Assembly: GCA_965220085.1 (NCBI GenBank)
Contig: CBDCOZ010000003.1
Span: forward strand, 1,888,001 to 1,952,000
Source of the DNA: Candidatus Oxydemutatoraceae bacterium
GTDB lineage: Bacteria; Pseudomonadota; Gammaproteobacteria; Poriferisulfidales; Oxydemutatoraceae
Reading direction: 5' to 3'
Length of the DNA stretch: 64,000 nucleotides
In this document: positions 23,530 to 40,210 of the stretch, piece by piece
Position numbering within the stretch: the stretch's first letter is position 1
How the letters are laid out: every line of letters begins with the position of its first letter
Program-made: the position numbers and the translations under genes
The notes under the pieces: model-generated
The model's database searches: none
Told to the model about the DNA's origin: nothing
What the model saw: the letters and a program-made list of their open reading frames with translations, nothing else

Positions 23530-24492
23530 TCAAAGAGCAAAGACTGGATATTCCCGCACCGCCTTTTGTCGAATAAAACACCGATAATATTGTTGTACAA
23601 AAATAAACATAGCTTTTCTATAGTTCAGTATCTCCTTTGATAGCCACTCTATATAGGGTTTCCCAGTCTTGCCCAAAATACGATACTGCTTATTTACAAT
23701 GGTAAAGTCTTCGCTTTTTATCTGATTAAGAGTGTGGGCTTTTTTAATGCGGGCATCAATAATTGGCCGAAATGGTTCAACTAAATCGCACACTAAGGAT
23801 TTCCTTTGATAAAAACACTGATGATAGACGCCTTTATAAATATCAAAACCATAGAGGCCCAACAAACCCTCAATGAAATTAAATAATATCGTATAACCAG
23901 TATCTTGCAACGAGTTTGTGGGATCATGCTTGACTCTTGGCCTGCGTGCTGTCCAGTTACATCCCCCAAACAACATTTTGAAATACTCTCTGGAAGCAAT
24001 TCCCTCAAGCCCTAATATTCCCTGCAAATCCGGCTTATCTCTGGTAAGACGCACACTATACTCTCCCAACCTTTCAATAGTCTTTTTCATCTCACCATCT
24101 TTATTGCGAATCTTTTTGAGCACACTTTTTTGATTGTCTATTTTATTCCTTATTAAATGTGTAGCGATTGCAAGCGATGAATAGCTGTATTGTTTCTCCC
24201 TTAACAGAAAATTCCCTTCTGTTTTTGCTCCCCATATCCCGTATGGTCGCAACCAACTTGTCATAAAGATTAGTGTGAAACCAAACTTGTCAGACCGTTG
24301 AAGTAACCCTGATGTGATTGTCAGGTTCCCAACGATATAAACTGCAAATAACCTATAGCATGTTGACTGATGGATAGTTTCACCCTCCTTGTCTTTTACA
24401 ATGATGTTGTCGTTCTTGAAAGTTAGCTTCTCTCCATTATTAGCAAATACGAACACGAGTTGCTTTTCCATAAAGTCAGGCAGACTCATCAT
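23530..24492 (-). CDS. cas1: type V CRISPR-associated Cas1
   Basis: GLEGIASREYF, SLVCDLVEPFRP motifs; operon position. Confidence 0.95.
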   Translation of the reverse strand: MMSLPDFMEKQLVFVFANNGEKLTFKNDNIIVKDKEGETIHQSTCYRLFAVYIVGNLTITSGLLQRSDKFGFTLIFMTSWLRPYGIWGAKTEGNFLLREKQYSYSSLAIATHLIRNKIDNQKSVLKKIRNKDGEMKKTIERLGEYSVRLTRDKPDLQGILGLEGIASREYFKMLFGGCNWTARRPRVKHDPTNSLQDTGYTILFNFIEGLLGLYGFDIYKGVYHQCFYQRKSLVCDLVEPFRPIIDARIKKAHTLNQIKSEDFTIVNKQYRILGKTGKPYIEWLSKEILNYRKAMFIFVQQYYRCFIRQKAVREYPVFAL

Positions 24493-25049
24493 ATCTCAGC
24501 TTTCTCATCGCAAAGGTTTGAATATATGCATCTGGCACATTTGTGAGGATTTGCATGAAATGAACTTGTCAAGTCATAGCAGTTAATATCTTGAATCAAC
24601 CTTTCAAATCTCTGTTGCATAAGTCTGTCATCCTTTGGCAATTTGATTGGATAAACTTTGTTGGTGTCCAGACTATATAAGCGTAACTTTCTAACGTTAT
24701 AGCCCATCTCTGTTAGGCAATGAAATTGACCATACAGTTGAAACACATATCCATCATATACCTGTTTTATAAGCTTCTTTCTCTCTGTAAGTAGCCCTTT
24801 CGCTTCATCAAAAATATCAATCTTTCCATGCAGCCTATAGCGTTCTGAGTAAACAGGAATCCCCTGCAAAACTGACTTTCTTGTGCTGTATGCACGGGAA
24901 TCAATAGCCTGATGGGCCTGTCGGCCTTCAATTTGGGGCTTTTCCTGATAACCCAGTTGCTCGCGCTTTGAATAAAGCTGGTGGAAGTAAATGGAGCGAG
25001 GACAGAAAATAAAATCATTCAGGAATGATATTGGGATATAGTTTTCCAA
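24489..25049 (-). CDS. cas4: type V CRISPR-associated Cas4
   Basis: LNDFIFCPRSIYFH, GKID, ERKK, C-terminal CxxCxxxxxC. Confidence 0.95.
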   Translation of the reverse strand: MENYIPISFLNDFIFCPRSIYFHQLYSKREQLGYQEKPQIEGRQAHQAIDSRAYSTRKSVLQGIPVYSERYRLHGKIDIFDEAKGLLTERKKLIKQVYDGYVFQLYGQFHCLTEMGYNVRKLRLYSLDTNKVYPIKLPKDDRLMQQRFERLIQDINCYDLTSSFHANPHKCARCIYSNLCDEKAEI

Positions 25050-25061
25050 TGGTATTTTGCT

Positions 25062-28000
25062 TCAGCTATTTTTATCTCTGCTCTGAACAAACTCATACCA
25101 AGCCCTATTGCTTAAATCAGGTTTGAACTTTTTAATTTCTTCTTCGTGCTTATTGAGTTGTCGAAGCATCATCAAAGATTTCAATGCTATATGGTATGCG
25201 CCATTCGCATCCGCATTCTGCGGCATAGAGCCATCTGCTACACGGGAATCAAAAAACTTTCCGCTTTTATCTCTCACCGGTGAAATTAGCCAATCCTCAT
25301 CTGTTCCTATCTTACTATTGCGCATCTGCAAAATTAATTTGAGTAAGCGGATAATAGACTTAAAGAATTGGCTATCGCTCTGCTCAATTATTAGATCTTT
25401 TATACACTGCTCATTAGAATAATCGATAGAAGAGTTGTGAAATAATTGTTTCAATTCCTTCGTTAAATTAACTTCTCGGGATGTCCACTGATTATTGTTG
25501 TCCGTGTCTTTAAAGTTTTCCAATCTTTCGCCATGGCTACATACAGTCCAATCTAATTTGCTTCCTTCTGCCTTATTCGTAAATTCATTGTAATTAAATT
25601 GAAACTCAAAGTAGTCGCCACTTTCATTGAAAGATATTTTCTCAAACTTCCCGAAGTAATCTTTTGTTTTTTCTATCGTCTCGTACTTTGGGCAAAGCAA
25701 ATTGACAAATCCAGTCGTTGGGCAAACTTTAGAAGTATGATACGCAGGAACATAGAAGATGAACCCAGTCTGTTTGCCCAATTTCTGAAAGCTTTCGAAA
25801 GGAGCGGCTAACTGCAAAGCGCTATATAGCCCTCCCGCTTCATCTTTTTCCTTATCCTTAAATACCAGATAATTCAACTTATCTATGAGCGTCTTCTCCA
25901 ACTTTTGATAGACCTGCTTTTCTATTTTGAATCGCCCTCTCTTAAAGCCAAAGTTTAAGTCTTCAAATACAACGATAGCATTGTATTCAACCATGAGTTG
26001 AGAAATTTTGTGCACGACTTGAGAAAGATAACCCTCTTTCAAGTCTTTAATTCTTTCAATGGTTCCCCACGACTTTCTGGCCTCGTCTCTTTCTCCTTCC
26101 CGCTGATCTAAAAGTTTTTGATAATCTTTTTCTCCAAACGGATTATTTAGACTGTCCTGCAGATAATCGCCGTTTTTATCTTTCAGTATTTCTCCGTTCT
26201 GATTAATAACCGTGTAATACGCCAAATGCCTTTCACCCCTGTCAATACCAATGATGTTAATGTCAGAATTGTTTTTCAAAAATTGGTTAACTTCATCTTT
26301 GATGTTGCTAAGTCCATCTGCTTTGAAATTACACGTAATCGGCACATGAAATAAGTATGTGTCCTGCGCATAGCGTCGATCTTTAATGATGGGATATTTT
26401 TGCTTCTTTTTTGGGTCGTTCGCATGGTGACCCTTTTTGCGAATTGCATCGGAGTATTCTATTGATGCTTTGCGATGAAATAGTTCGGACTCTCCGTCAA
26501 GTTTATAAATGACATGTTTTCGGTTCTGTCCTTCAAATAGAGCTCTCCAGTAAAGGGTTTGCAAGTTCGGCTTCCCCTTTGACTGCGGAGAAAAATCTTT
26601 GGAATAAATTTGGAATAGGTATAACTTACCCTCGCTTACGCATTTATCAATATAGTTTTCCGAAATATCTACAAAAGTGATTTTATAACCCTGTTTATCT
26701 ACATCGTCGGTAAAGTCTTTGAACTTATCATAATTGCCACTTGAGCGAAAATTAAAATTAGCCCACGGCCAGTAACTTTCTGCTGCCTCCTTATAGTAAT
26801 CAATGAATATTGATAAATCGCTCTTACTAAAATGTTTGCCTGGTTTATAAGATTCTTCTTGCTTTATTCTTGCTATACCAGGGATGTGCTGCTCTTTCAA
26901 TTCCTCTAAATGTTTTGTGTATTTTATAAACTGTCCTTCCACCTTGACTAAATTTTGAATATTTATAGCAGCTCTCGTCTGTTTATAAACCATTTTTTGA
27001 TAACATTTTCCATCGCTAGGCAACTTATCTTTATTTGCAAATAACTTTTTGTGACCCTTGTCCATAACCCCAAGAAAATATTGCCCGTCTTTCATTAAAA
27101 GTACACAAGTGGTAGCTGTTTCCCTATTCTTGTCCCACCCACCTGCAAGTTCTTGGTTTTCAAAATTTAATTTATATTTCTCAATGCTATAAGGCCTTTT
27201 AGTAAGGTAATTACGCACCTTATCGTAGAGTGGGATAATCTGGCTAAGCTCTCGGTATAGTTCATCAAATGTGCTATAGAAACCACCGTCTTTTTCATAT
27301 GCCTCAATCTTTTTTTGATCTTTCTTTCTAAGTTGTATATATAGCGGTCGCAGGAAAAGCTGTAAGTCTTTAAGTGCGTCAAGGTAAGCCTTAATTTTGC
27401 TCACTTCTTCTTTCTTAGCCTTGAGTCTCTTTTCTTCAATACACTTATACTTTTCCATTATGGGCAAAGCGGCCTTATACGCTATTTCTATTTCTTCAAG
27501 TAGTTCTTTGGGTTCAAATAAATTCTTCTTTTCGTTCTTTTTGCGAATGGAGAGTTCTGCAAAATAATTAAATAGGGGCTCGCTTGTGGCGATCTCTTTT
27601 TGTTGTTTCATGTCTTTTTCTCCGGCTATCTTCTCTTGTTTGTCACCCTTTTCCTCCTTTAGCTCATCGTCCGTATATCGGTCAAAGTATATTGCTAATG
27701 CTTCATGAATTTCATGAAAGGAAAAATAGGACTGCTTACACCACGTTTCTCTAGCCTTTTGAAGCTTCTTTGTTTCTTTTTTATTAGCAGGTTTAGGAAA
27801 CTTTACTACTTCGGCATAGTATTCCAGACAATCATTTATCGTATTCCAATTGCCAAACAAGTGTTGTGAAATACTCTCTATAGCACGATCATTTCTAATA
27901 TAGATTTTCTTAGGATCCGCTTTCTCAAGGGATTGCAGATAGGCCTCCTCTACTTGCTCTTGAACCTCCCTTGTAATTTCTCTGACATGCTCCAGTTTTT

Positions 28001-28955
28001 TACATAGATCAGCATCACTCTCAATATTTTCAATGCGGAAAGAAAGCGTATTGCGATCACTAAGAATCTGTTTGTATAAGGCCTCCAGCTTACACGACCT
28101 GATTTTCTTGGCTTTTACGCCGTCTTTTTGTTTTTGTGCATAGAGGTTTATCTTTTCATTGAGTCCTTTTTGTTTAACACTGCCTTCCAAGCTAATTCCA
28201 CCCACAATTGAGTTGTACTTATCAATGCCCTCCTGAGTTAAACAGTGGTTAAAACCTGCAATAGTAAGAAGGTCATCTAACTTCATATTAGAATGCTTTT
28301 CTAAATGTTTTTCCACTTCAGAAAAATCAACACCAAAGCTTTTAGCTTCCTGATAGCGTTCTATGTTATCCAGAAACTTCGGTAGATTGTCATGTATTAG
28401 GCGGTAGCCAATAGATGTACTGTGATCTTTACTTGTATAAATATTCTCCCTGTTTTCATTGAAGCCACCAAAATAACTCGTCCAGTTCTTAAAGCTATCA
28501 ATAATCTCTTCCGGGTTGTCAACACCCTCAATGGAAACAGAGTTCTTTTTTAGCCAATTTGGAAGTGTATCCTTGATAAATCTCGCTTTAAATATATCTT
28601 CACCTTTGAATATATTTGCTACTTCTCTGCGAAGCTTGTTTTGTTGATTGCTAAAACTATGCCGCTTTTTTGTATCCAACTTATCTTGTTTGAGATCTCT
28701 GTACGCTTTTTGGAATACGCACAGATCTTCTTCCTTGAATCTAAAGCCAGATAACTTGCGATTGATATAATCTTTGTGATATTCATCAATAATCTTTTTT
28801 GCTTGTTTATATTTATCGGCAAGATCTTCATCTTGCTTAAGCAGACCTTTACTATCTATATGCTTTTGCGTCTCGCCAATCGGCTTAAGTGCAAACCGCA
28901 GTGTCTTGTTCACCTTAAACTTGTTAGTGAATTCCATTAATGTTCTATTCATCAT
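25062..28955 (-). CDS. cas12a: Cas12a (Cpf1) effector, 1297 aa
   Basis: KTLRFALKPIG N-terminus; intact RuvC motifs IIGIDRGERHL, VFEDLN, NADANGAY. Confidence 0.98.
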   Translation of the reverse strand: MMNRTLMEFTNKFKVNKTLRFALKPIGETQKHIDSKGLLKQDEDLADKYKQAKKIIDEYHKDYINRKLSGFRFKEEDLCVFQKAYRDLKQDKLDTKKRHSFSNQQNKLRREVANIFKGEDIFKARFIKDTLPNWLKKNSVSIEGVDNPEEIIDSFKNWTSYFGGFNENRENIYTSKDHSTSIGYRLIHDNLPKFLDNIERYQEAKSFGVDFSEVEKHLEKHSNMKLDDLLTIAGFNHCLTQEGIDKYNSIVGGISLEGSVKQKGLNEKINLYAQKQKDGVKAKKIRSCKLEALYKQILSDRNTLSFRIENIESDADLCKKLEHVREITREVQEQVEEAYLQSLEKADPKKIYIRNDRAIESISQHLFGNWNTINDCLEYYAEVVKFPKPANKKETKKLQKARETWCKQSYFSFHEIHEALAIYFDRYTDDELKEEKGDKQEKIAGEKDMKQQKEIATSEPLFNYFAELSIRKKNEKKNLFEPKELLEEIEIAYKAALPIMEKYKCIEEKRLKAKKEEVSKIKAYLDALKDLQLFLRPLYIQLRKKDQKKIEAYEKDGGFYSTFDELYRELSQIIPLYDKVRNYLTKRPYSIEKYKLNFENQELAGGWDKNRETATTCVLLMKDGQYFLGVMDKGHKKLFANKDKLPSDGKCYQKMVYKQTRAAINIQNLVKVEGQFIKYTKHLEELKEQHIPGIARIKQEESYKPGKHFSKSDLSIFIDYYKEAAESYWPWANFNFRSSGNYDKFKDFTDDVDKQGYKITFVDISENYIDKCVSEGKLYLFQIYSKDFSPQSKGKPNLQTLYWRALFEGQNRKHVIYKLDGESELFHRKASIEYSDAIRKKGHHANDPKKKQKYPIIKDRRYAQDTYLFHVPITCNFKADGLSNIKDEVNQFLKNNSDINIIGIDRGERHLAYYTVINQNGEILKDKNGDYLQDSLNNPFGEKDYQKLLDQREGERDEARKSWGTIERIKDLKEGYLSQVVHKISQLMVEYNAIVVFEDLNFGFKRGRFKIEKQVYQKLEKTLIDKLNYLVFKDKEKDEAGGLYSALQLAAPFESFQKLGKQTGFIFYVPAYHTSKVCPTTGFVNLLCPKYETIEKTKDYFGKFEKISFNESGDYFEFQFNYNEFTNKAEGSKLDWTVCSHGERLENFKDTDNNNQWTSREVNLTKELKQLFHNSSIDYSNEQCIKDLIIEQSDSQFFKSIIRLLKLILQMRNSKIGTDEDWLISPVRDKSGKFFDSRVADGSMPQNADANGAYHIALKSLMMLRQLNKHEEEIKKFKPDLSNRAWYEFVQSRDKNS

Positions 28956-29072
28956 CTTAAACTTTCAAATTTTTGTTAATCAATAATAATGTGGGAGAGC
29001 ATTGCTACAAACTAAAATACCTTTTTAATAAAGTATATGAAATCTACGGAGAGACAAAACCTTTGCAAAGGC

Positions 29073-29102
29073 TTACTTCTCAGTCGCCTTTATCTCTATT
29101 GA
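29073..29102 (-). pseudogene. 3' end of the small antitoxin-like gene (SIEIKATEK*), cut by IS481
   Basis: 29032-29102 nearly identical to 16402-16472. Confidence 0.8.
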
Positions 29103-30155
29103 TGTATGATGCCAGTACATATTGGAAACTCTGGGCAAATATTGTGTAATTTGTGCCATAGGTGTTTGGAGCCTCAATCCATAATGTGGTCGTTGGGTAT
29201 TAAACCATAGCAGGTAGTCTATCATACGCTCATTGAATTCCCGAATATCGGTCAGCAACAAGCCCTCTTCAAACTCCACAAATTCTTCCTGGAGCGTGCG
29301 GTTAAAGCGTTCATTGAATGCGTTCATCTTCGGACATTTGGGATACGTGTAGCAGTGCCGGATACCTTGCTCTTGCAGGCAGCGATCAAACGCGCCGCAG
29401 AACTCGGAGCCGTTGTCGGTGAGCACTTGCTCTATCTTGGCGGGGAACACTTCCATCATCAGCTTCATAAAGAACTCGGCAGCGATGCTGTTGCCACGAG
29501 GGACGCCGATAGCAAAGCCAAACCGGCTATACAAATCTACGGCCGTGAACAGATAGCGACGCTGACCTTGAATAAACCGTTGCACGGTATCCATAGCGAT
29601 GCAATGCCCGATACGCTTTGCATTGAAACCCTTTTCAAGACGCTCCTTGCTCTTGCTTTGCGTTGTGCGTTGCCGACGCGGTTTTGCGGGCACCCAGCGC
29701 ATCTTATCGGCTTCGCCGGCAATCAGTCGCGCGATGGTGCGCGGCTTGGGACAACGCAAGCCGCGCTCGTCACACCACGGTTGAATCAGCAGGTATATCT
29801 TGGGTGCGCCGTAGGGATAGTTTTCGCGGTGTCGCCGAATCTCGTCGATAATCTCCTCAGGCCAGTCGCGCCGGCGTGGCTGGCGCGGGCAAGTGCTCTG
29901 ATTGATTAAGCCGTTAATGCCATAAAGCCGATATTGTCTCCGCCACTCATAGAGTGATGATTTGCTGATGTGGTAAGCGTCCATGCTGGCTTTTATGTTG
30001 TGGTTCTCCCATAATATAAGGGCTTCAAGTTTCTGTTTTGCTTTATAGCTCATAGTTGCCTCGTCTATTGAAAAAGCAGCTATTTTATAGAAACCTTTGA
30101 CGCCGTAGCCGATGTGTTGATATTGCATGTCGGCTACGTTTGTTGTTGAAGCCAA
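29073..30155 (-). CDS. IS481-family DDE transposase (stop codon lies outside the IS)
   Basis: HTH plus rve core: AMDT, LTDNGSEF, NERFNRTLQEEF, NTQRPH. Confidence 0.93.
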   Translation of the reverse strand: MASTTNVADMQYQHIGYGVKGFYKIAAFSIDEATMSYKAKQKLEALILWENHNIKASMDAYHISKSSLYEWRRQYRLYGINGLINQSTCPRQPRRRDWPEEIIDEIRRHRENYPYGAPKIYLLIQPWCDERGLRCPKPRTIARLIAGEADKMRWVPAKPRRQRTTQSKSKERLEKGFNAKRIGHCIAMDTVQRFIQGQRRYLFTAVDLYSRFGFAIGVPRGNSIAAEFFMKLMMEVFPAKIEQVLTDNGSEFCGAFDRCLQEQGIRHCYTYPKCPKMNAFNERFNRTLQEEFVEFEEGLLLTDIREFNERMIDYLLWFNTQRPHYGLRLQTPMAQITQYLPRVSNMYWHHTSIEIKATEK

Positions 30156-30183
30156 GAATCCAGAATGTTTCTGGCATTATGCA
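29103..30183 (-). mobile_element. IS481-family element, copy 1 (1081 bp)
   Basis: Ends TGTATGATGCCAG / TGCATAATGCCAG; no matching flanking duplication. Confidence 0.9.
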
Positions 30184-30212
30184 AACACTCATGCGGCCAA
30201 CGGCTTAAAACA

Positions 30213-31346
30213 TCACGCATCGGGGCTGTGCAAAAGATCCCGGTAGTTTTCCGGCGTGATTGTCTCGTAGCTTGCATTGTCATAGGTAGCAAGCCACTCT
30301 TTAGGCGGTGCCTTCTTAGTTGCTTTCCATTTGAACCCGTAGCCGTGCAGACGGCCGCCGCGCTCTTCAATCAAATCAATCTCCTTGCCGTCGTAAGTCT
30401 GCCAGAAGTAATAGTTCGCATGCACCCCGCCGTAGGCGTTCGCTTTCAGTCTTTCCACGACCATGAAGTTCTCCCACAGTTGTCCGACATCGTTTCGTAA
30501 CTCCAGTTCATTGAAGTTTGCAATCAGTGCGTTGCGAATACCCAAGTCATAGAAATAGTACTTGCCCATCTTGCTGATCTCTTTTCGCAAGTTGCGCGAG
30601 AAACTGTTAAGCCGGAATATCACAAAGGACTTTTCCAGCAAGTCGAGATAGCGGGTGACGGTCTTGTTATCCATGCCAAGGCTTGAGCCCAGCTCGGAAG
30701 TAGATACCTTGCTTCCTACCTGAAAGGCGAGGAGCTTCAGCAGGTCAATGAGCGGCTTAGCACGCCGGACCCGGTCAAACTCAAGGATGTCCCTGACCAG
30801 ATAGCTGTCCTTGATCTCAACAAGCCGTCGTTGCCTGTGCGCATTGTTCTCAGCAGTGACGATGGCAGGGTATGACCCGTAAATCAGATACTCGGAAAGA
30901 CGCTGCTCAATCTCATGCCATGTGTGAACCGAGTGCAACTCGCTCAGCGAGAGCGGGTACATCGTCATCACGACTTTCCTGCCGGTCAACGGTTCGTCTG
31001 CAACATTTGCCAGATCAAAAGAGGAAGAGCCGGTAATGACGATATGAATATCGGGGACTTGATCGATCAACAGCTTCAGTGCCCTGCCGACATTCTGTAT
31101 CTTTTGTGCTTCATCAATGAACAGCAGGCGGGCATCGCCGAGCATGTTTTTCATCAGGTGCAAATCACACTTGGCGAAGGTGTCGGCAAACTCAAGCTCA
31201 TCGGCAGTGAACGCCTTGTAGGGCAAGTCGGTCGTCTGCAGAAACGCCTGCGCCAGAGTCGTTTTGCCAACCTGACGCGCCCCGTAGATGATGAGGATTT
31301 TGCCTTTCTCCAAGTAATCCTCTATGTTGAGTTGCCTTGGAATCAT
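30213..31346 (-). CDS. AAA_14 ATPase with DUF4143 C-terminus
   Basis: GARQVGKTT, FIDEAQ, TGSS, YFYDLG, EIDLI. Confidence 0.9.
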   Translation of the reverse strand: MIPRQLNIEDYLEKGKILIIYGARQVGKTTLAQAFLQTTDLPYKAFTADELEFADTFAKCDLHLMKNMLGDARLLFIDEAQKIQNVGRALKLLIDQVPDIHIVITGSSSFDLANVADEPLTGRKVVMTMYPLSLSELHSVHTWHEIEQRLSEYLIYGSYPAIVTAENNAHRQRRLVEIKDSYLVRDILEFDRVRRAKPLIDLLKLLAFQVGSKVSTSELGSSLGMDNKTVTRYLDLLEKSFVIFRLNSFSRNLRKEISKMGKYYFYDLGIRNALIANFNELELRNDVGQLWENFMVVERLKANAYGGVHANYYFWQTYDGKEIDLIEERGGRLHGYGFKWKATKKAPPKEWLATYDNASYETITPENYRDLLHSPDA

Positions 31347-31548
31347 GGGCGGATTATCACACAATTCCTATGATTTAGCAAAATTATGGGAATTGTATTC
31401 CTATAATTCAACTGAATTATAGGATTTCCAAGCGTTGACTCGCTATGAAACCCAAGAGATATAAAGGCGAACGGCAGGTTTTCTGACTGAAGCAAACCAT
31501 ACTTTGGAATAGTCAAGACTATTCTAAAGTATAGTTTATAATGGTCGG

Positions 31549-32670
31549 ATGCGTTATCTACTACCCAATCTGCAAAAAGATCTGAAGAAAAAGATGGTTA
31601 TATTGGCCGGTCCCCGGCAATGCGGCAAAACCACTCTGGCCAAATCCCTGCTCAATAAAAACGGTGAGTACCTGAATTGGGACATCGCAACCGACCGCAA
31701 AATTATCCGCGACATTGCCTGGCCCAAAGATGCATCCCTCGTCGTACTGGATGAGTTGCACAAAGCCCCCAAGTGGAAAAACTTATTGAAAGGCGTGGCG
31801 GATGAGTTTGCCAACACCCCGCCGATTCTAGTCACTGGCAGTGCCCGCCTGAATGCTTTGCGCAAAACCGGAGATGCTTTAACCGGGCGCCATTATTTCT
31901 ATCACTTACATCCTATTGACATCGCCGAGTCCCGTCTCTTTCTGCCCAAGATGCCGCTTGCCAAACGAATACAGAGACTGTTGCACACCGGCGGGTTTCC
32001 CGAAGCTTTCCTCCATCCTGAGGAAAGCCTGCGGCTGCGTAATGACAGAATGGAGCTAATCGTGAAAGAAGACAGTCACAGCTTAAGCCAAATCAGTTCC
32101 TGGCGCGGCGCGGTTGATTTGGTGGAATTATTGCGCGCCTCCGTGGGCAAGCCGATCAACTACGGCAGCCTCGCACGAGACCTGAGTATCTCTCCTCCGA
32201 CCGTCAGGAATTGGATTACGCTGCTTGAGAATCTCTATATCGTCTTTCTCATACCGCCTTACTCGCGCTATCTCACGCGTAGCATACGCAAGGAGAAACG
32301 AGCATTTTTCTATGATTGCGCCGCGGCATACGACGACACGCAAGGCGCGCAACTGGAAAATCTGGTTGCATGCTGCCTGCTCAAATACATTCAGTTCAAA
32401 AAAGACACTACAGGTGAGAACTGGGATTTGTTCTATCTGCGTGACAAAGAAAAACGAGAGGTGGATTTTGTCGTGACACTCAACCGACGGGTACATTGGC
32501 TGATAGAAGTCAAAAAGTCGGACGATGCCATCGGCAATGGCCTTAGCTATTACACGAAGCGGCTGAAGCCGAAGGAATCCATACAACTGGTGCTACACCT
32601 TGACCGCGCCCAAGAGAAAGCCGGCATCAAAGTCCTGCCGCTTGGGGAATGGCTGGACGCGCTTGGCTAA
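31549..32670 (+). CDS. AAA_14 ATPase with DUF4143 C-terminus
   Basis: GPRQCGKTT, VLDELH, TGSA, GGFPE, EVDFV...IEVK. Confidence 0.9.
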   Translation: MRYLLPNLQKDLKKKMVILAGPRQCGKTTLAKSLLNKNGEYLNWDIATDRKIIRDIAWPKDASLVVLDELHKAPKWKNLLKGVADEFANTPPILVTGSARLNALRKTGDALTGRHYFYHLHPIDIAESRLFLPKMPLAKRIQRLLHTGGFPEAFLHPEESLRLRNDRMELIVKEDSHSLSQISSWRGAVDLVELLRASVGKPINYGSLARDLSISPPTVRNWITLLENLYIVFLIPPYSRYLTRSIRKEKRAFFYDCAAAYDDTQGAQLENLVACCLLKYIQFKKDTTGENWDLFYLRDKEKREVDFVVTLNRRVHWLIEVKKSDDAIGNGLSYYTKRLKPKESIQLVLHLDRAQEKAGIKVLPLGEWLDALG

Positions 32671-32711: not shown

Positions 32712-34685
32712 TCAATACAAAATCCGAACCAGATCTTTGTTCAAGCCCAACATATTAAGCCACTTCAATAAACCTATCTGTGCGTAGCCATCTATATAAA
32801 CGCGGCTGTTGACAGATACTTTTCTCAAGTCGGTTTCGCATTCGCCAAGAACAAAGTATGAGCTTCGCACTTTATAAAGCTTATCCGCTTCAATTTCTTC
32901 AATCGCGTCGTCAAGTAATACTTCGCCACTTGCCGCCATCATGTTGTACAGAGTATCGGTTGCAGTTTGTCGATCAATATGCAAGCGTAACTTGCCATCT
33001 TCATCTGTCTTTGTTTTCGGTTTTTCAGTAAGAGAAAAAACCTTGTAACCTATATCAAGACCATTCTCCAATAGGCCTGCCTCTTCTTTTATTTTGTCGC
33101 CGGCCCGATTAACCCGCTCTATGCATATTGAGGATATAACTGGTTGCAGATCATTCTTCTTGCAAAAATCAAAAATAGACTTACTCGTTTTGGAATCAAT
33201 TTCTTCATCGCGCTGGACAAGAATAAATTTACGCTTGCCGCCATCTTCTTTATTTAAGTCCATCACCGCATGCGCAGTCGTGCCGGAACCGGCAAAGAAG
33301 TCCAGCACAATATCTCCTTCACTAGTTACCATATTTAATATATCTCTAATCAACCGCACTGGTTTCTTGCCATTCTTAAATTCTACCCCACCTTCAGTAG
33401 CTATATTCATCATGTCTTTGTAATATCCCTTCCACCAATCACCACGGATTTTTCTCAGTCCATACCAAGGTTGAAAGTCATGCGTGTCACCTATTGACTG
33501 GGCTAAATTAATCAATTGCCGAATCACCCCGTTGGAGTTTTTAAAAATTGTATAGCTTTTATTTAACTTACTTACAGATATAATCTTCCCTTCTTCCAAC
33601 TGCTTCTTCTCTTCTTCAGAAAAATTCAACTTGACCTGACACACAGCATCTCGGCAGATATGCTCTGCATCTTCATGCACAAACTGGCGGAATTGCTCAT
33701 TTCTCTCATATAAGTGAGAAATATTATCCAAACTATTTTTAGAAACAGACGGAATCTTCCCCGCATCAATTTTCTCTCTTAGATATTCCTTCAGGGTCCG
33801 CCGGTCACCGGTGACCGAATCGTAATATATAGAGTAGTGTGTATCCCATTCACGCTTTTCATAAAGCAGTTGGAATGGTTGCTTAAGATTTCTATCTTTT
33901 CCATAAACAAGAACAAATTCGCCATTCTTTACAATCTCACCTTTCTGGGCTGTAGCAACTTTCATCCCTTGAGTAACAGACATCTCCACAAAAAGGTGCG
34001 AAATGAAATTATATTCCCCAAAAATTTCATCACACATGATTTTTAAGTTAGCTTGCTCGTTATCACCAATGGAAATAAAGATAACACCGTCTTCGGTTAG
34101 CAAGTCACGCGCCAGTTTCAATCGCGGGTACATGGCAAAAAGCCAACCGGAATGATTCTTTGTACCGAATACATTCTCAAAGAACTGAACCGCGTCTTCA
34201 TCCAGACTGTACCTTTCTATCAGTTCCGCTTCACTTTCCTTGAAGCTATCGTTGTAGACAAAGTTTGCAGTGTCTGTGTTATAAGGCGGGTCAATGTAGA
34301 TTGACCTAATCTTGCCTTCGTAGTTTTGGCGCAGAATTTTCAACGCATCCAGATTATCGCCACGGATGATAATATTCTCTGTCGTGTCGAAATCTTTCGA
34401 CTGCTCTTTTTCTACCTGTAACTCCTTATGTGTAGGTTCATCCGCTTTGATTCTCGCCAGCCCTTTGCCGGCAAAATTCAAACCATAACCCTGATTCTCC
34501 GTCGCATAGCCGGCAACACCCAGCAGGTTTTTGAGGGCTTTAATATCCAGCAAGCCATCGCCATTAATCAGCTCGGGAAAAATAGAATGTAATTGCTCCA
34601 ATTTATCCTGCCTGCATATTGATGTCTCTACGTTAGAATCAATGGTCTTAAACCCAGACTGCTCGGCATCCTTTTTATCAATCAT
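32712..34685 (-). CDS. mod: type III restriction-modification methyltransferase (Mod)
   Basis: IRGDNLDALK, IYIDPPYNT, KPVRLI, LDFFAGSGTT; ATGA overlap with res. Confidence 0.93.
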   Translation of the reverse strand: MIDKKDAEQSGFKTIDSNVETSICRQDKLEQLHSIFPELINGDGLLDIKALKNLLGVAGYATENQGYGLNFAGKGLARIKADEPTHKELQVEKEQSKDFDTTENIIIRGDNLDALKILRQNYEGKIRSIYIDPPYNTDTANFVYNDSFKESEAELIERYSLDEDAVQFFENVFGTKNHSGWLFAMYPRLKLARDLLTEDGVIFISIGDNEQANLKIMCDEIFGEYNFISHLFVEMSVTQGMKVATAQKGEIVKNGEFVLVYGKDRNLKQPFQLLYEKREWDTHYSIYYDSVTGDRRTLKEYLREKIDAGKIPSVSKNSLDNISHLYERNEQFRQFVHEDAEHICRDAVCQVKLNFSEEEKKQLEEGKIISVSKLNKSYTIFKNSNGVIRQLINLAQSIGDTHDFQPWYGLRKIRGDWWKGYYKDMMNIATEGGVEFKNGKKPVRLIRDILNMVTSEGDIVLDFFAGSGTTAHAVMDLNKEDGGKRKFILVQRDEEIDSKTSKSIFDFCKKNDLQPVISSICIERVNRAGDKIKEEAGLLENGLDIGYKVFSLTEKPKTKTDEDGKLRLHIDRQTATDTLYNMMAASGEVLLDDAIEEIEADKLYKVRSSYFVLGECETDLRKVSVNSRVYIDGYAQIGLLKWLNMLGLNKDLVRILY

Positions 34686-37579
34686 TCGTTTGCTCCTATA
34701 TCTTTCAACAAGTAGGCAAGCTCCTGTTTGTTGATGCGTTTTCTAAATTTTACCAGTACCTTGGCTTCGGAAGTTTGAGCGGCATATTGACTCAACGCAT
34801 TAAAGAAACGTTCGCCGTATTGTATTTTTTTCTTCTCGTCTGCGGGAATATCGCTTTCACTGTCATAGCCCTTTGTTTCCACAACTAAGAATAGCTTTTT
34901 CTCTGCAGTTGTCCGTATATAGTAAGCAAAGTCAGGGCTATAAGACTTATACGGAGTCGGGATAGACAGCCGTGGCAATTTAGCGAACACGACGATTCTG
35001 TCATCCCCAACCCGCTCAGGATCATCATTAACAATGTCGCGCTCAATTTTGGAGTCATAACAAATCTTGTCATAAAGATAGGCGGCCTTTGGTTCAGAAC
35101 TGGTATCCGTGTACTTGCCTAAGTAGGAAGCTTCCATTTGTTCTTTCAACTCACTACATTTATTGTCCCTGTAAAAAATACTTCTCGTATCAATCGCTAT
35201 TTCACCTTTGAATTCATAGTCTATCGACTCGATTACATTGCTGTGGATATGGTCTTTAACGAATTTTGAGATAAGTTCATATGCCCGCTTCGGATTCGAA
35301 GAAATCTTTTCCTTATCCAATGACCGGAACAACTTCAGGCAAAACTGCAAAGGCAATTTTTCTTGCTCGGCAAAATTCGCAACAAATTCGGCATACTGGT
35401 CCTCACTAAAGATATCCGCCCTGCCCAGAAAAGTTTGCTTTTCAAACACAATCTGATTGTTCTGGTGGTCATAGGTTCTTTTTTCAACCTTTCTTTCAAT
35501 CACAGGCACAGATTCGTTTTCAAAAGACGCTTTGACATTCGCTATCAACTTATCATCATCTACATTGCGATAGATGATTTCTGCCTTGTTAGTGATGGTG
35601 TGCCACAAGGATTCAAATTCCTTAAATTTGTCGGCTCTAATGCCAACCTTGTCTTGCTTCCGATTACGATTAACTACGGGCGGACGTACAGACTTTTTGA
35701 ATGCATCCACCAACATATCGTATTTTTCCTTAAGACCACTGAGCTTGTCGGGGAGATTATCTTTATTCTCTACAAGAAAGTCAGCAACAGGCATATTGAT
35801 ATGCCATGCTTCGTCCCCACTTTCATCTAGGCTGATGACTTGTCCATCCTCCAACCATGTAGAAAGCCGATTGACCTGCGATGCATTTAAACCTAATTTG
35901 AGCAAACCCGCACGAGTCAGCCTCTCAGCGGTCAAACTGCCCTTGGTAATCTCATTTTGAATACCTTCAATAAAATTCTTTTCCTGCCCGGAAACGACAA
36001 CATCCAGCGTATTCACTTCATAAAACCTACTTTCACTGTCCTCGCAGGACTTGATAGTTTGCCTTCTGCCATTACGATCTACTACAAGCCTCAGGCCACG
36101 TCCGACTTGTTGTCGACGCGTGGTCTCCTTACTTGTTGAAGCAAGTTTGCAGATAGTCAAAATATTCGGATTGTCCCAACCTTCCTGTAGCGCCCACACG
36201 GAAAAAATAAACCTGAGTGGTTCCTGAGTAGATAGTAACCGTTCCTTATCGTTAAGAATAAGATTAATACCATAATTCTCTTTTTCCTGATTAGTCCCTT
36301 TGTCGCCAGAGAAGTAACCTTGGTGGACACATAGCCGATGTTCATTGTCGTAGTCCTTATTTAGATATTCATGGTAGGAATCAGACAAGGGCTCTTGTAA
36401 CTTCTCTTGCCTTTGCTTGGTATATTCTTCTTCAAATATGATTTTGATACGAGGGTTATCACCCCTGAAGTCCGCAACACTGGGGATAAAAAAGAGGGAT
36501 AGGGCTTTAATACCCCGATCAAACAGATCTTTTTCTTTTTCAAAGTGGAGCGCTATGGTTGCCTTTATCATCTCTCGCACAGTATCGTCAGCAATATCGT
36601 AACTCGGCGAGGATAAATCCTGCTTGGTACCATTGCTCAAAATAACCTTATCCTGTTTTACTCTAAGGCTGTGGAAATCATGTGCTTTATCACCAGTGAC
36701 AGTGGATATGTTCTGACCGTGCGTGATGTTAGCCTTATGCTCTATGCCATCTTTGAAATAATACAGACTCAGACCGTTGCGGCCACCACGATAAAACTTA
36801 ATGCTTGAATTCTCATCCGTAACGGTGGATACGCTGATGCGTTTAACCAGATAATCACGAAAGGCGGTGATACTATCCAAAGTGTAAACAACATTGGATA
36901 GTTGGTTTTCTGCCTCCTGCGGGAAAGTAGCGCCAAAGCGCAAAAGTAATGATTCAGAAAAATATTTATCATAAGTGTTAGTAAACCCCTCTCCTTTCAA
37001 TAGGTGTGGCTCGTCAATAAACATAATCGGCTTCAACTTACTAATTGCTTCAAGCGGTGCTACTGCGCCTAACAGGCTTTCATTCGCTCTGGTAAGTATT
37101 TTGCTCTGTTTTTTTTGCCCTGTTATGGACGCACTGGTTAAAATCAGCACCGAAAACTCCCGCTCATTACTGATGTAATTCTCAACTTGATGAAGTCCGT
37201 TTTTGTCACCATAGACGTACTGCTTGAGTCGCTTGCCGTACTCTTGGAAAAAATAGTCGGCGGTCAAGTTTATATTCTGGATGATACCGGCACGAATAGC
37301 GAGACGCGGTACGAAGATTAAAAATTTTGTCACCCCGTGCCGCCGATTTATCTCATACATGGTTTTAAGATAGGTGAAGGTTTTTCCAGTGCCGGTCTCC
37401 ATGAGAATATCCAGCCTGAAATCGTCCTTCAAATCCGAAACCGGAATGTTCTGCTCGCCGCACAGTTGCTCAAGCCCCTCTCTTAGCGATACGCGACCAT
37501 TGAATGCATCGCTGTATTCAAGCACCTGCAGAATATTGCTGACGCAACTTTCCTGATATTCCTGTTTTTCGAATAACAT
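34682..37579 (-). CDS. res: type III restriction endonuclease/helicase (Res)
   Basis: METGTGKT, FIDEPH, LQEGWDNPN, QQVGRGLRL, PDF...VETKG nuclease. Confidence 0.93.
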   Translation of the reverse strand: MLFEKQEYQESCVSNILQVLEYSDAFNGRVSLREGLEQLCGEQNIPVSDLKDDFRLDILMETGTGKTFTYLKTMYEINRRHGVTKFLIFVPRLAIRAGIIQNINLTADYFFQEYGKRLKQYVYGDKNGLHQVENYISNEREFSVLILTSASITGQKKQSKILTRANESLLGAVAPLEAISKLKPIMFIDEPHLLKGEGFTNTYDKYFSESLLLRFGATFPQEAENQLSNVVYTLDSITAFRDYLVKRISVSTVTDENSSIKFYRGGRNGLSLYYFKDGIEHKANITHGQNISTVTGDKAHDFHSLRVKQDKVILSNGTKQDLSSPSYDIADDTVREMIKATIALHFEKEKDLFDRGIKALSLFFIPSVADFRGDNPRIKIIFEEEYTKQRQEKLQEPLSDSYHEYLNKDYDNEHRLCVHQGYFSGDKGTNQEKENYGINLILNDKERLLSTQEPLRFIFSVWALQEGWDNPNILTICKLASTSKETTRRQQVGRGLRLVVDRNGRRQTIKSCEDSESRFYEVNTLDVVVSGQEKNFIEGIQNEITKGSLTAERLTRAGLLKLGLNASQVNRLSTWLEDGQVISLDESGDEAWHINMPVADFLVENKDNLPDKLSGLKEKYDMLVDAFKKSVRPPVVNRNRKQDKVGIRADKFKEFESLWHTITNKAEIIYRNVDDDKLIANVKASFENESVPVIERKVEKRTYDHQNNQIVFEKQTFLGRADIFSEDQYAEFVANFAEQEKLPLQFCLKLFRSLDKEKISSNPKRAYELISKFVKDHIHSNVIESIDYEFKGEIAIDTRSIFYRDNKCSELKEQMEASYLGKYTDTSSEPKAAYLYDKICYDSKIERDIVNDDPERVGDDRIVVFAKLPRLSIPTPYKSYSPDFAYYIRTTAEKKLFLVVETKGYDSESDIPADEKKKIQYGERFFNALSQYAAQTSEAKVLVKFRKRINKQELAYLLKDIGANE

Positions 37580-37584
37580 AGGAG

Positions 37585-38475
37585 TTATAAATGTAAGCAA
37601 CTCTTAATTGCGTCAGCTTTTTTGAGCTTATCCGCTTTCTTAGGTTCAGTCAAAGCAATATGATCTAGCTTACCTTTTACAGAAGATTGAGAAATATTCT
37701 TCTCTTTGCAATCCTTGATTAAATCGTTCGTATATTTATCCGGCTTCCTTAAGCTATATCGACCAAGCCTATACCCAAGTAACTCTTTCTTATCCTGAGA
37801 TCCTTGTACCCTGGTCTTCTTGTTTTTTATTCTTAGCCCTTTCTCCTTCACCAACCCGGTAACCTTTTTTATTATGTCTGTCTTCTCACCACAACTAAGA
37901 TTACGCTTAGAGCTTATCGCAATATCATCTATGTAGCGTGTGTATGTGCACCCGTTCTTTTCTAAGTCCTTAAAAAGTTTATGCTCTTCACCTCCGGCTA
38001 ATAGCACAAGATTAGCAAGGTGAGAACTGGTAGAAACTCCTTGTGGAAGTCCCCCATCATATGTCGTCAGTTGTGTCAAAAGTTCAGCCACTTCAGGGGA
38101 AAAGCGGAAATGATACTTAAATAAGTGGCAAATCATATCACTCGTTACAGACGGGAAAAAATTTGCTATGTCCATAGTAATTAGAACGGTTGAGCGCAAG
38201 TGAATAGAAGCACTTCCTTGTACTGAACGACCTTCTATTCCGCCACAAACGAAAGGTGGGTATTCTGCTCTCCTTAATATTTTATCTTTGATTCTTGACT
38301 GAATTGGCTTTAGAGGCATCTTTGAGGGTGTAATTGCACGGGCACCTTTCATATATGTATGATAATAACTTGCAGAGTTAGTAGCTATACACCTCAAAGA
38401 TGCCTCTTCGTAACCCAAGCATTTTCCAAGGCTACGCACAGAGCGGATAGGTCTATGTGAGTACAGCTGATACAT
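37585..38475 (-). CDS. retron-type reverse transcriptase (Ec48-like by recalled motifs), 296 aa
   Basis: MDIANFFPSV, LPQGVSTS, YTRYIDDIAIS, NKKT; SAxxH at the NAxxH position; ELLG at the VTG position. Confidence 0.88.
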   Translation of the reverse strand: MYQLYSHRPIRSVRSLGKCLGYEEASLRCIATNSASYYHTYMKGARAITPSKMPLKPIQSRIKDKILRRAEYPPFVCGGIEGRSVQGSASIHLRSTVLITMDIANFFPSVTSDMICHLFKYHFRFSPEVAELLTQLTTYDGGLPQGVSTSSHLANLVLLAGGEEHKLFKDLEKNGCTYTRYIDDIAISSKRNLSCGEKTDIIKKVTGLVKEKGLRIKNKKTRVQGSQDKKELLGYRLGRYSLRKPDKYTNDLIKDCKEKNISQSSVKGKLDHIALTEPKKADKLKKADAIKSCLHL

Positions 38476-38602
38476 ATCTTGTCCTCAGGTAAATGATGAT
38501 GGCGAGTAAACTAATTGCTATCTTGGTAAGGAGCCTAATAAAAGCCTCCTCAATCCTGATATATATCAGTCTACCCCGTTCGGTTAATATTATTATTTTC
38601 AT
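38453..38602 (-). CDS. 49-aa hydrophobic small protein (MKIIILTERGRLIYIRIEEAFIRLLTKIAISLLAIIIYLRTRYVSAVLT), putative retron effector
   Basis: Manual translation; AGGAGG SD 7 nt before ATG; overlaps the RT start by 23 nt. Confidence 0.6.
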   Translation of the reverse strand: MKIIILTERGRLIYIRIEEAFIRLLTKIAISLLAIIIYLRTRYVSAVLT

Positions 38603-38999
38603 AATAATACCTCCTAATTAGGTTAGCCTGAACTTAACTCAGTCAGGTCAATCTGAGTTGTCTCACAATGAGACAAAAGCCTCTTGTGAAATATCTCAGT
38701 GTGAACACTCAGCTTACGAACGGGATACTCGCCACCACCATGTAAAGCCTCTGCTGTTTTAACAACAGAGGTCTGACACAAGTATTTCGCAATGCCATGT
38801 AGCAAACGGAATTCGTCGTATTGTCCTGACTCGCTTTCACGCCCTCGTTACAATACACGAACCCGATACTTTATGAATCGCAATTCTTGCATCGTAGCAA
38901 CAGACTTCTACATAGGTAGAGTACTGTCAGATTAAAGCTCTTGCCTTAACCTATATTTAGTGTTCACTAACACTAATTAGTGCCCCCTTCAGGGGTGCG
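38603..38999 (-). ncRNA. putative retron msr/msd-like structured RNA (boundaries approximate)
   Basis: Dense hairpins (AACTCAG/CTGAGTT, TTGTCTCA/TGAGACAA, CCTCTG/CAGAGG, GTATTGT/ACAATAC, TCTAC/GTAGA) and long-range IRs (GTGAACACT/AGTGTTCAC, TAGGTTA/TAACCTA) directly upstream of the RT operon. Confidence 0.6.
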
Positions 39000-39005
39000 T
39001 CGGAT

Positions 39006-39033
39006 ACTATATCTAGTTTTGAAAATTATGCAA
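39006..39033 (-). promoter_or_regulatory. sigma70-like promoter for the retron-RM operon
   Basis: Minus strand TTGCAT-16 nt-TATAGT. Confidence 0.5.
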
Positions 39034-39209
39034 CCCCCCACATATTGCGATATCTGGCGGGGACTTAGCAATTATCTTGGCACAGCAGTGGTATGTTAAT
39101 TGCTAGGTTCTTGACTCTATTAGGGTTATTTGCCACAAGCTACTGATGGCAGAATCATCCCACAGAAACTTGCGACTCTAGCGGTTGCTAATCTAACAAG
39201 GTTGCATGG

Positions 39210-39716
39210 CTAAACCCGCCGCGCATCGTATGCCCAGTGCAGTAGCGACTGGCGTTGGCGGGGCCGGCAAGCAAAGTCTTTGCTCCGGCAGTTCTTGGTT
39301 ATCTGCATCAGGTGGCGGCGATATGCTTTCCAGCGTTTAATCTGGCGCGTGTCATCTTCGCTGCGCCGCCCAAGATAATAGCGGCAATACCATTGAAACC
39401 AGCCGCGCGGGTCTTGCGGGTGAATCCATCCCTTGTCGCGCCACACACTGAGCGGCTGGCTGGCATTGACACCGAAGAAGTTCAGCTCTTTGTGGCGGAT
39501 GCCATCAGGCGATAGCTTTGCATCCTTGAACCAATCCGGCGGCAAGTCGGATGGCTTGTCACTGAAGTACAGCCCGCCGAATACACCGAGCGCAAGCATC
39601 TGCACAGGTGTCAGTTCGGGTTCAAACTCTTTGGCAAAGTTTTTACCGGCAGGCTCCGTGAGTGTATAACGATAATCCTTCTGATAGCCGTCGGAATAGC
39701 GTACTGTCTTCATCAT
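39210..39716 (-). CDS. conserved hypothetical protein (LGVFGG / DPRGWFQWYCRYY motifs)
   Basis: Intact ORF; truncated diverged paralog at ~45226-45577 and a remnant near 48795-48845. Confidence 0.8.
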   Translation of the reverse strand: MMKTVRYSDGYQKDYRYTLTEPAGKNFAKEFEPELTPVQMLALGVFGGLYFSDKPSDLPPDWFKDAKLSPDGIRHKELNFFGVNASQPLSVWRDKGWIHPQDPRGWFQWYCRYYLGRRSEDDTRQIKRWKAYRRHLMQITKNCRSKDFACRPRQRQSLLHWAYDARRV

Positions 39717-39868: not shown

Positions 39869-40210
39869 CTACTCAGCCTTAGCCTTAGCAACCTTTTCGG
39901 CCATGCGGATATACTCTCTAATCAGGGCAATGAAACGCGGATAGCCGGACTCTTTGGCAATAAACTCAAATGTTGATTCAACCTGTTCCGCAGAGTAACC
40001 CTCGCGGACAAGACCGCCAAAAGCCTCTTCAAGAAACGAAGACGGGTAACCGCGCGCACCGTCCAGAATAATCTCTGCCTTCTCGCCGGATTTAATTGCC
40101 GGGACAAGAAACTTCTCTCGAAATATAGTTCCGTTACCCTTCCCATCTTCCGGATAACGCCCGCCCGGGTGCTGACTGAAATCTTCCGCAATGTTAATCG
40201 TTTGATTCAT
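39869..40210 (-). CDS. STAS-like (DUF4325-like) protein
   Basis: INIAEDFS.HPGGRY...G..FRE...LDGARGYPSSFLEEAFGGL. Confidence 0.8.
   Translation of the reverse strand: MNQTINIAEDFSQHPGGRYPEDGKGNGTIFREKFLVPAIKSGEKAEIILDGARGYPSSFLEEAFGGLVREGYSAEQVESTFEFIAKESGYPRFIALIREYIRMAEKVAKAKAE

Follow-up and report, generated by a model that had tools for sequence, protein, structure and literature searches.

A 64,000-nucleotide stretch of contig CBDCOZ010000003.1 from Candidatus Oxydemutatoraceae bacterium, hereafter the window, carries on its minus strand a retron whose reverse transcriptase (RT) belongs, judged by its sequence, to the Type VI clade. A 49-codon open reading frame (ORF) overlaps the start of the RT gene, and the locus encodes no helix-turn-helix (HTH) protein, the partner by which Type VI retrons are defined. 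We conclude that the frame is probably the small-protein (SP) effector of an HTH-less retron of the Type VI clade. An earlier sequence-only reading of the same DNA had drawn attention to this frame as a possible toxin gene, and its location does agree with that of the small-protein toxin gene in Type VI retrons.

The mechanism that we favour, and that we regard as about an even call, is that the frame encodes a growth-arresting effector of a horizontally acquired retron, which stays untranslated through the fold of its own hybrid RNA and is released once RT-made DNA accumulates after infection. Since the highly structured leader has the frame at its 3' end, leader and peptide gene would share one hybrid RNA. 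In the resting state, two adjacent hairpins would hold the ribosome-binding site and the start codon, and a 25-bp helix between the leader and the peptide coding region would clamp the domain around them; with the start signals enclosed in this way, little peptide would be made. Upon phage infection, DNA copied by the RT from a long leader hairpin would accumulate, as in the Type VI retron Vpa2, and would remodel the RNA so that the peptide could be translated. The hydrophobic C-terminal helix of the peptide would then stop the growth of the infected cell. Translation, toxicity, the identity of the template hairpin and the trigger are steps that we infer by analogy; the anatomy of the locus, the class of the RT, the HTH gap and the predicted RNA fold are described below.

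The 49-codon frame and the fold of its leader

The frame occupies positions 38453..38602 of the minus strand (ATG at 38602; 49 aa) and is preceded by a perfect Shine-Dalgarno (SD) sequence, AGGAGG, at 38610..38615 (minus), with a spacer of 7 nt. Its end lies 23 nt inside the RT frame, which opens with the ATG at 38475. The encoded peptide has eight basic and three acidic residues, for a net charge of +5, and a single uncharged run, IAISLLAIIIYL, at residues 28-39. Its Kyte-Doolittle maximum over 19 residues is 2.17, and AF2, run from the single sequence, models the peptide as one long helix (pLDDT 89.7). The sequence-only reading had described the frame, its perfect SD, its hydrophobic stretch and its overlap with the RT start, and all of these are present. 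Over the whole window, AGGAGG followed by ATG after 5-9 nt shows no enrichment (2 occurrences against 2.0 expected); the chance of finding such a pair on the correct strand, no farther than about 130 nt from the RT start on its upstream side, is estimated at ~0.3%.

Between the frame and position 39000 (38603..39000, minus) lies a leader that is predicted to be highly structured and non-coding, and that is the candidate for the msr-msd part of the hybrid RNA. All RNA structures reported here are thermodynamic predictions. A transcript segment of 566 nt (39005-38440) has a minimum free energy of -203.8 kcal/mol, compared with -145.5 +/- 6.2 for its shuffles (z -9.37). The antisense of the same 566 nt reaches -166.2 (z -4.56), and two coding controls of equal length gave z values of +0.72 and -1.22. 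The prediction places a small CCCC/GGGG hairpin at the 5' end of the leader and adds three further hairpins. It also contains a long imperfect hairpin of 119 nt (38775..38893, minus; -41.1 kcal/mol, z -3.97), with none of 200 shuffles being equally stable. Since Vpa2 and Sen3, another Type VI retron, have long stem-loops, this 119-nt hairpin may be taken as the best candidate for the reverse-transcribed template (msd). A 10-bp G+C-rich hairpin (38748..38771, minus; -15.8 kcal/mol, z -5.60) stands between it and the 5' strand of the predicted 25-bp long-range helix (38717..38741, minus). This strand pairs with 38582-38573, which are peptide codons 7-10, and with 38507-38493, which are codons 32-37. 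The two halves of the helix are visible as inverted repeats of 19 nt at 84% and 11 nt at 91%, and their pair probabilities are 0.999 and 1.0 in three transcript variants.

Two smaller elements are predicted around the translation start. The palindrome CCTAATTAGG / CCUAAUUAGG (38613..38622, minus) folds into a hairpin of 3 bp in which the first three SD bases are paired, and an 11-bp A/U hairpin (38586..38611, minus) covers the last two SD bases, the spacer and the AU of the AUG, its 3' arm consisting of peptide codons 2-6. The element comprising SD and AUG has a predicted energy of -8.5 kcal/mol (z -2.81), and one of 200 shuffles was equally stable; both hairpins sit within the domain closed by the 25-bp helix. 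The unpaired probabilities of the six SD bases are 0.28, 0.07, 0.24, 0.94, 0.20 and 0.03, and those of the AUG are 0.00, 0.03 and 1.0. These values are the same in seven of eight transcript variants, namely those that include codons 2-6; the exception is a variant cut at +12, in which the last four SD bases are open (0.97-1.0 unpaired). The ribosome-binding site and the start codon of the candidate SP are thus predicted to be sequestered in stems.

An occludable SD had been proposed in the sequence-only reading, which noted the overlap of the SD with the palindrome and suggested a long-range helix between two heptamers, one next to the SD and one near the 5' end of the leader. The palindrome overlap is real, as CCTAATTAGG at 38622-38613 shares the first three SD bases, and the two heptamers are indeed complementary (in RNA sense, TAACCTA at 38625-38619 and TAGGTTA at 38953-38947). 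The helix between them is, however, not supported. Its pair probability is 0.0 in the three transcripts tested, and the complementarity does not exceed chance, since a complement of at least 7 nt to the 36 nt around the SD also arose when the first 120 nt of the leader were shuffled, in 867 of 5000 cases. Occlusion of the SD and the start is therefore retained as a prediction, but its source would be the palindrome hairpin together with the 11-bp A/U hairpin.

The leader matches no Rfam family, and nhmmer found no nucleotide similarity between it and 181 other RT loci. The apical loop of the 119-nt hairpin and the loop at the start codon have only UGAAA in common. Other direct repeats between the 119-nt hairpin and the riboregulator were considered as switch elements and set aside at an estimated chance level, as were the inverted repeats of 10-13 nt designated I4, I5, I8 and I9, some of which lie upstream of the possible transcript start.

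The reverse transcriptase, the absent HTH and known relatives

The RT gene (37585..38475, minus; ATG 38475) encodes 296 aa with a YIDD active site. The protein matches Pfam RVT_1 at 3.1e-17 and PADLOC RT_VI at 8.4e-64, the best of 82 models, its residues 6-283 covering model positions 2-278 of 279; the second-best PADLOC model, RT_V, scores 5.3e-54, ten orders weaker. Its only close relatives are three metagenomic proteins (P0002-P0004; 48-50% identity), each of which also has RT_VI as its best model. Together with the RT, these three form one clade, with a support of 100, in a maximum-likelihood tree of 122 RTs; the sister of this clade is a large, mostly proteobacterial and mostly HTH-bearing clade of Type VI retrons. 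On these sequence grounds the RT belongs to the Type VI clade, the type that the sequence-only reading had brought in for comparison. The usual motifs of retron RTs are named NAxxH and VTG. At the first position the RT has SASIH (residues 87-92), within a pattern of C/S-A-x-x-H across the four-member subclade; at the second (residues 233-236) the subclade has LGY, where relatives have (V/I)TG/K.

Searching for related loci with the single RT as query found none, and alignment queries yielded 80, 71 and 29 loci. Among loci for which DNA was available, the best identity to the RT is at most 43%. The best plasmid match reaches 37%, phages gave none, and all 18 other genomes of the family lack the RT.

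An HTH gene abuts the RT start or overlaps it, by 4-38 nt in the latter case, in 77 of the 132 related loci with enough upstream DNA, and 73 of those 77 loci have a further small ORF upstream of the HTH. The present locus leaves no room for an HTH gene, since the peptide frame itself overlaps the RT start. A profile of the HTH partner, built from the related loci, reached at most 1.1 bits in the six frames of 38301-39300 and returned nothing at E<=1 in the 3.8-kb locus, while positive controls scored 1e-33 and 1e-38. The statement of the sequence-only reading that no HTH is present thus holds for both scans. A remnant of an HTH in the leader or the peptide was also considered and is ruled out by the profile scan (<=1.1 bits). 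The sole other XRE-type matches in the genome are on the same contig, at a distance of at least 0.4 Mb.

Retrons of this clade that lack the HTH are found elsewhere. Three loci from Planctomycetota (L026, L027 and L041) have RT_VI as the best model and no HTH in six frames, and each carries an SD-led small protein of 84-105 aa directly upstream of the RT. These proteins share 51-53% mutual identity and the core VMEIVEKIRSLIFC, and in two of the three loci AAAGGAGGT stands before the small-protein ATG. At least one RT_VI lineage has therefore kept the combination of an RT with a small protein and no HTH. As in our locus, a single SD-led frame for a small protein with a hydrophobic helix stands immediately upstream of the RT in these three loci, but their proteins are longer, are unrelated in sequence and end 37-100 nt before the RT start, and their RTs are on another branch of the tree. 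Eleven further loci had first been labelled as having a small protein only; their best models are RT_VI for one (L032), RT_V for one (L005) and RT_III-A for nine, and L005 and the nine RT_III-A loci were left out of the Type VI count. According to the available text of a recent preprint, an HTH is present in about 78% of Type VI entries, so that HTH-less members are known to exist; these are not characterised in that text (Garcia-Rodriguez et al., bioRxiv 10.64898/2026.04.27.721009).

Among the closest known systems is Vpa2 from Vibrio parahaemolyticus, for which we rely on the accessible part of the report (Zhang et al., bioRxiv 10.1101/2025.10.22.683967, October 2025). There, the SP's ribosome-binding site and its initiation codon lie in stem-loops of the hybrid RNA, the SP alone is toxic, and the multicopy single-stranded DNA (msDNA) derepresses the SP; the HTH represses reverse transcription, and its loss is toxic. 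A retron toxin that is translationally repressed and released by reverse-transcribed DNA is thus already published for Vpa2, and the inference of the sequence-only reading repeats a mechanism already in print. The two loci are alike in that a small toxin gene (a candidate one in our case, on a putative hybrid RNA) stands 3' of the msr-msd part on one hybrid RNA, that the ribosome-binding site and start codon are in two stem-loops and the coding region folds back on the non-coding part (both predicted here), that the small protein is helical with a hydrophobic C-terminal core (55 aa in Vpa2) and that the RTs fall in the same PADLOC class. The predicted layout falls into a template arm, a riboregulator arm with a hairpin each over SD and AUG, and a coding arm that turns back on the non-coding part, which is the arrangement that Zhang et al. 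give for the hybrid RNA of Vpa2. They differ in that Vpa2 has an HTH, that the peptide here directly overlaps the RT start and that no similarity of peptide or RNA sequence could be shown. A conserved 7-nt direct repeat, in the msd loop and in the riboregulator loop, is part of the model proposed for Vpa2 and is not evident here. Type VI loci of the Bacteroidota type (L094, L097, L099-L102, L107, L110, L112, L121, L123-L125 and L136) have two copies of the heptamer AAGCAGG at a distance of 68-95 nt from each other; the copies precede the small-protein gene and lie about 600-860 nt 5' of the RT start. This heptamer is probably the conserved repeat of Zhang et al.; it is absent from the leader in the window.

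Sen3 represents a different mode of control. In the accessible text, its SP is made constitutively and is neutralised post-translationally by the HTH, independently of the RT and the non-coding RNA (ncRNA), and HTH loss is again toxic (bioRxiv 10.64898/2026.04.27.721009). As far as that text describes them, Sen3 and the cl2075 lineage have features that are also predicted for our locus. Their ncRNA is structured, lies within about 280-400 nt of the SP start and contains a long internal stem-loop as well as a small one close to the 5' end; the ribosome-binding site of the SP is sequestered, and a long-range helix joins the ncRNA to the SP region. The Sen3 protein has 79 aa and is neutralised by an HTH, whereas the peptide here has 49 aa and there is no HTH; moreover, the 3' arm of the long-range helix lies past the SP stop in Sen3 but inside the SP coding region here. 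The SPs of Sen3 and Vpa2 are only 1.9% identical, and published SP clusters are mutually unalignable.

In the original classification, as far as its available text goes, Type VI retrons are defined by a Cro/C1-type HTH partner of cluster 2_1, of 91-110 aa (Mestre et al., 2020, PMC7736814). Our locus has an RT of the same group and a candidate small accessory protein without an identifiable domain; the accessory small proteins described there have 75-79 aa as against 49 aa here, and the defining cluster 2_1 HTH is absent. As this defining accessory was looked for and not found, we regard the locus as a variant rather than a plain member of Type VI. What sets it apart from known Type VI retrons is the lack of an HTH, the very short orphan peptide overlapping the RT, the divergent RT subclade and the tight junction with a restriction-modification operon described in the next section.

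Outside the retrons, a small hydrophobic toxin is also encoded by type I toxin-antitoxin loci such as hok/sok and tisB/istR, in which mRNA structure hides the SD of the toxin until remodelling of the RNA. An antisense RNA is not evident here, and the remodelling agent that we propose is instead reverse-transcribed DNA from the same transcript.

Neighbouring genes and transcription

The retron lies in a low-GC stretch (0.38-0.46, compared with 0.64-0.68 further on) that is a defence island by its Pfam and PADLOC matches. Besides a Type III restriction-modification pair, the island holds Cas12a-Cas4-Cas1, a transposase and two AAA ATPases. The adjoining defence genes at window positions 23530-32670 encode Cas1, Cas4, a Cas12a (Cpf1) of 1297 aa, a transposase of the rve type and, on opposite strands, two ATPases of the AAA_14/DUF4143 kind. 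The Type III restriction (res) and modification (mod) genes (32712..37579, minus) are directly 3' of the RT. The res ATG at 37579 stands 5 nt past the RT stop and has no SD (window 37577-37587, minus), and res precedes mod with an overlap of 4 nt (34682-34685, minus). A res gene downstream of the RT was found in none of the other RT loci compared, and the res/mod pair was not counted as a component of the retron.

Upstream of the leader, TTAACA and GATAAT separated by 17 nt (39071..39099, minus) form a promoter-like site with 10 of 12 matches, the sole one on the minus strand in 37400-39400. Given this position, a transcript shared by the retron and the restriction-modification genes is possible, and res and mod are possibly co-transcribed with the retron. 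The site itself is not evidence of function, as the number of promoter-like sites in the region is close to chance (5 found, 4.3 expected). A weaker pair, TTGCAT/TATAGT (39033-39006, minus), was noticed by eye only. Directly upstream of the leader is an ORF of 168 aa (39210-39716, minus) with no match in Pfam, PADLOC or NCBIfam, and the next ORF upstream encodes a DUF4325 STAS-like protein (39869-40210, minus); neither is an HTH protein.

Inside RT codons 23-55 there is a perfect 16-bp inverted repeat, giving a stem of about 20 bp (38312..38407, minus; -36.1 kcal/mol, z -5.98). The chance expectation for such a repeat is estimated at about 1e-4 per 1 kb. It accounts for matches to the Rfam family mir-5856 that are sited on this RT-gene hairpin and stay below threshold (25.8 bits against a cut-off of 90).

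A bolder picture can be drawn from these elements, and we consider it unlikely as a whole. The retron would consist of two parts only, hybrid RNA and RT, and its toxin would be held by RNA structure alone, with neither an HTH brake nor an antitoxin. It would form one transcription unit with the Type III restriction-modification operon, so that one promoter would arm two layers of defence, and the 16-bp hairpin in the RT gene might be a further control point of the transcript.

The same genome holds a second retron (L002; G000:C1:170007-170855), with an RT of 341 aa that matches PADLOC RT_IX at 1.4e-117 and two upstream ORFs of 177 and 202 aa without a Pfam family.

Competing explanations and significance

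Several observations weigh against a translationally controlled effector. The peptide is an orphan: a search by shared words in 5.8 billion proteins and a HMMER search in 1.84 billion representatives each returned only the peptide itself, Pfam, PADLOC and NCBIfam gave no match, the Atlas gave no usable match, and the comparison with eight groups of retron small proteins reached 1.5 bits at best, with hhalign probabilities of at most 0.3%. The partners in the sister clade are longer (72-87 aa against 49 aa), although the peptide is near the 55 aa of the Vpa2 protein. Its RT belongs to a subclade without the usual NAxxH and VTG motifs, even though YIDD is present. The RNA folds lack support from covariation, and they show no clear counterpart of the 7-nt direct repeats proposed for Vpa2. 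Finally, as HTH loss is toxic in Vpa2 and Sen3 according to the available texts, a system without an HTH needs another brake.

Part of this evidence also fits the explanation that the frame is not a gene but the 3' part of a structured retron ncRNA, in which AGGAGG, ATG and the open frame are by-products of an A/U-rich, hairpin-forming sequence. Much of the peptide sequence is also constrained by RNA pairing, codons 2-6 being a hairpin arm and codons 7-10 and 32-37 being strands of the long-range helix, so that pairing could dictate a large part of it. Codon usage is ambiguous as well: the score of the frame, 0.049 per codon, is below that of 97% of in-frame and above that of 99% of off-frame res/mod windows, and it does not separate the frame from a 60-codon leader frame that has no SD and scores higher (0.153). 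Frames of 30-60 codons are common in the neighbourhood, and the AGGAGG-ATG arrangement occurs in the window at chance frequency. On the other side, the perfect SD, its ideal spacing, the ATG, the end inside the RT start and the hydrophobic C-terminal helix match published Type VI retrons and the three HTH-less RT_VI loci. We consider the non-coding explanation rather doubtful. The start signals, the position overlapping the RT, the hydrophobic C-terminal helix, the riboregulator-like fold and the small-protein precedent in HTH-less RT_VI loci together favour a gene, and we judge it likely, by about two chances in three, that the frame is one.

If the frame is a gene, its control or its role may still differ from what we propose. 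A toxic peptide could be made constitutively and be restrained post-translationally as in Sen3; because no HTH antitoxin exists here, the restraint would fall to the RT itself or to a host factor. The accessible account of Sen3 makes clear that control is not uniform among Type VI retrons, and the hairpins at the SD and AUG are only moderately stable at -8.5 kcal/mol. However, no antitoxin candidate is encoded, the locus has no HTH, the XRE-type matches are more than 0.4 Mb away, and the fact that SD and AUG are both predicted to be occluded speaks for translational control, which makes post-translational restraint quite improbable in our view. Alternatively, the frame could serve for coupling only, delivering ribosomes to the RT start 23 nt before its own stop, with its amino-acid sequence being irrelevant. 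Such a role would mirror the HTH-RT overlaps of 4-38 nt in related loci and would suit a peptide without a conserved family. Yet a separate GAGGA precedes the ATG of the RT by 6 nt, this ATG is predicted to be mostly unpaired (0.67-1.0), and a sequestered start and a hydrophobic run of 12 residues would be needless for coupling; we regard this explanation as very unlikely, more so than the others. An effector that is kept untranslated by its own hybrid RNA and released by RT-made DNA remains the reading that we prefer.

The locus bears on how retrons of this clade keep their toxins in check. In both Type VI retrons studied so far, removal of the HTH kills or poisons the cell. A natural system without an HTH raises the question of what restrains the toxin: RNA structure alone, or the RT or a host factor in place of the HTH. 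Should the frame not be a gene, the locus would consist of an RT and a large structured RNA without an effector, a finding of interest in its own right. The effector genes in this class of retron are tiny, evolve fast and escape homology searches; they must therefore be found by their position, their start signals and their RNA context.

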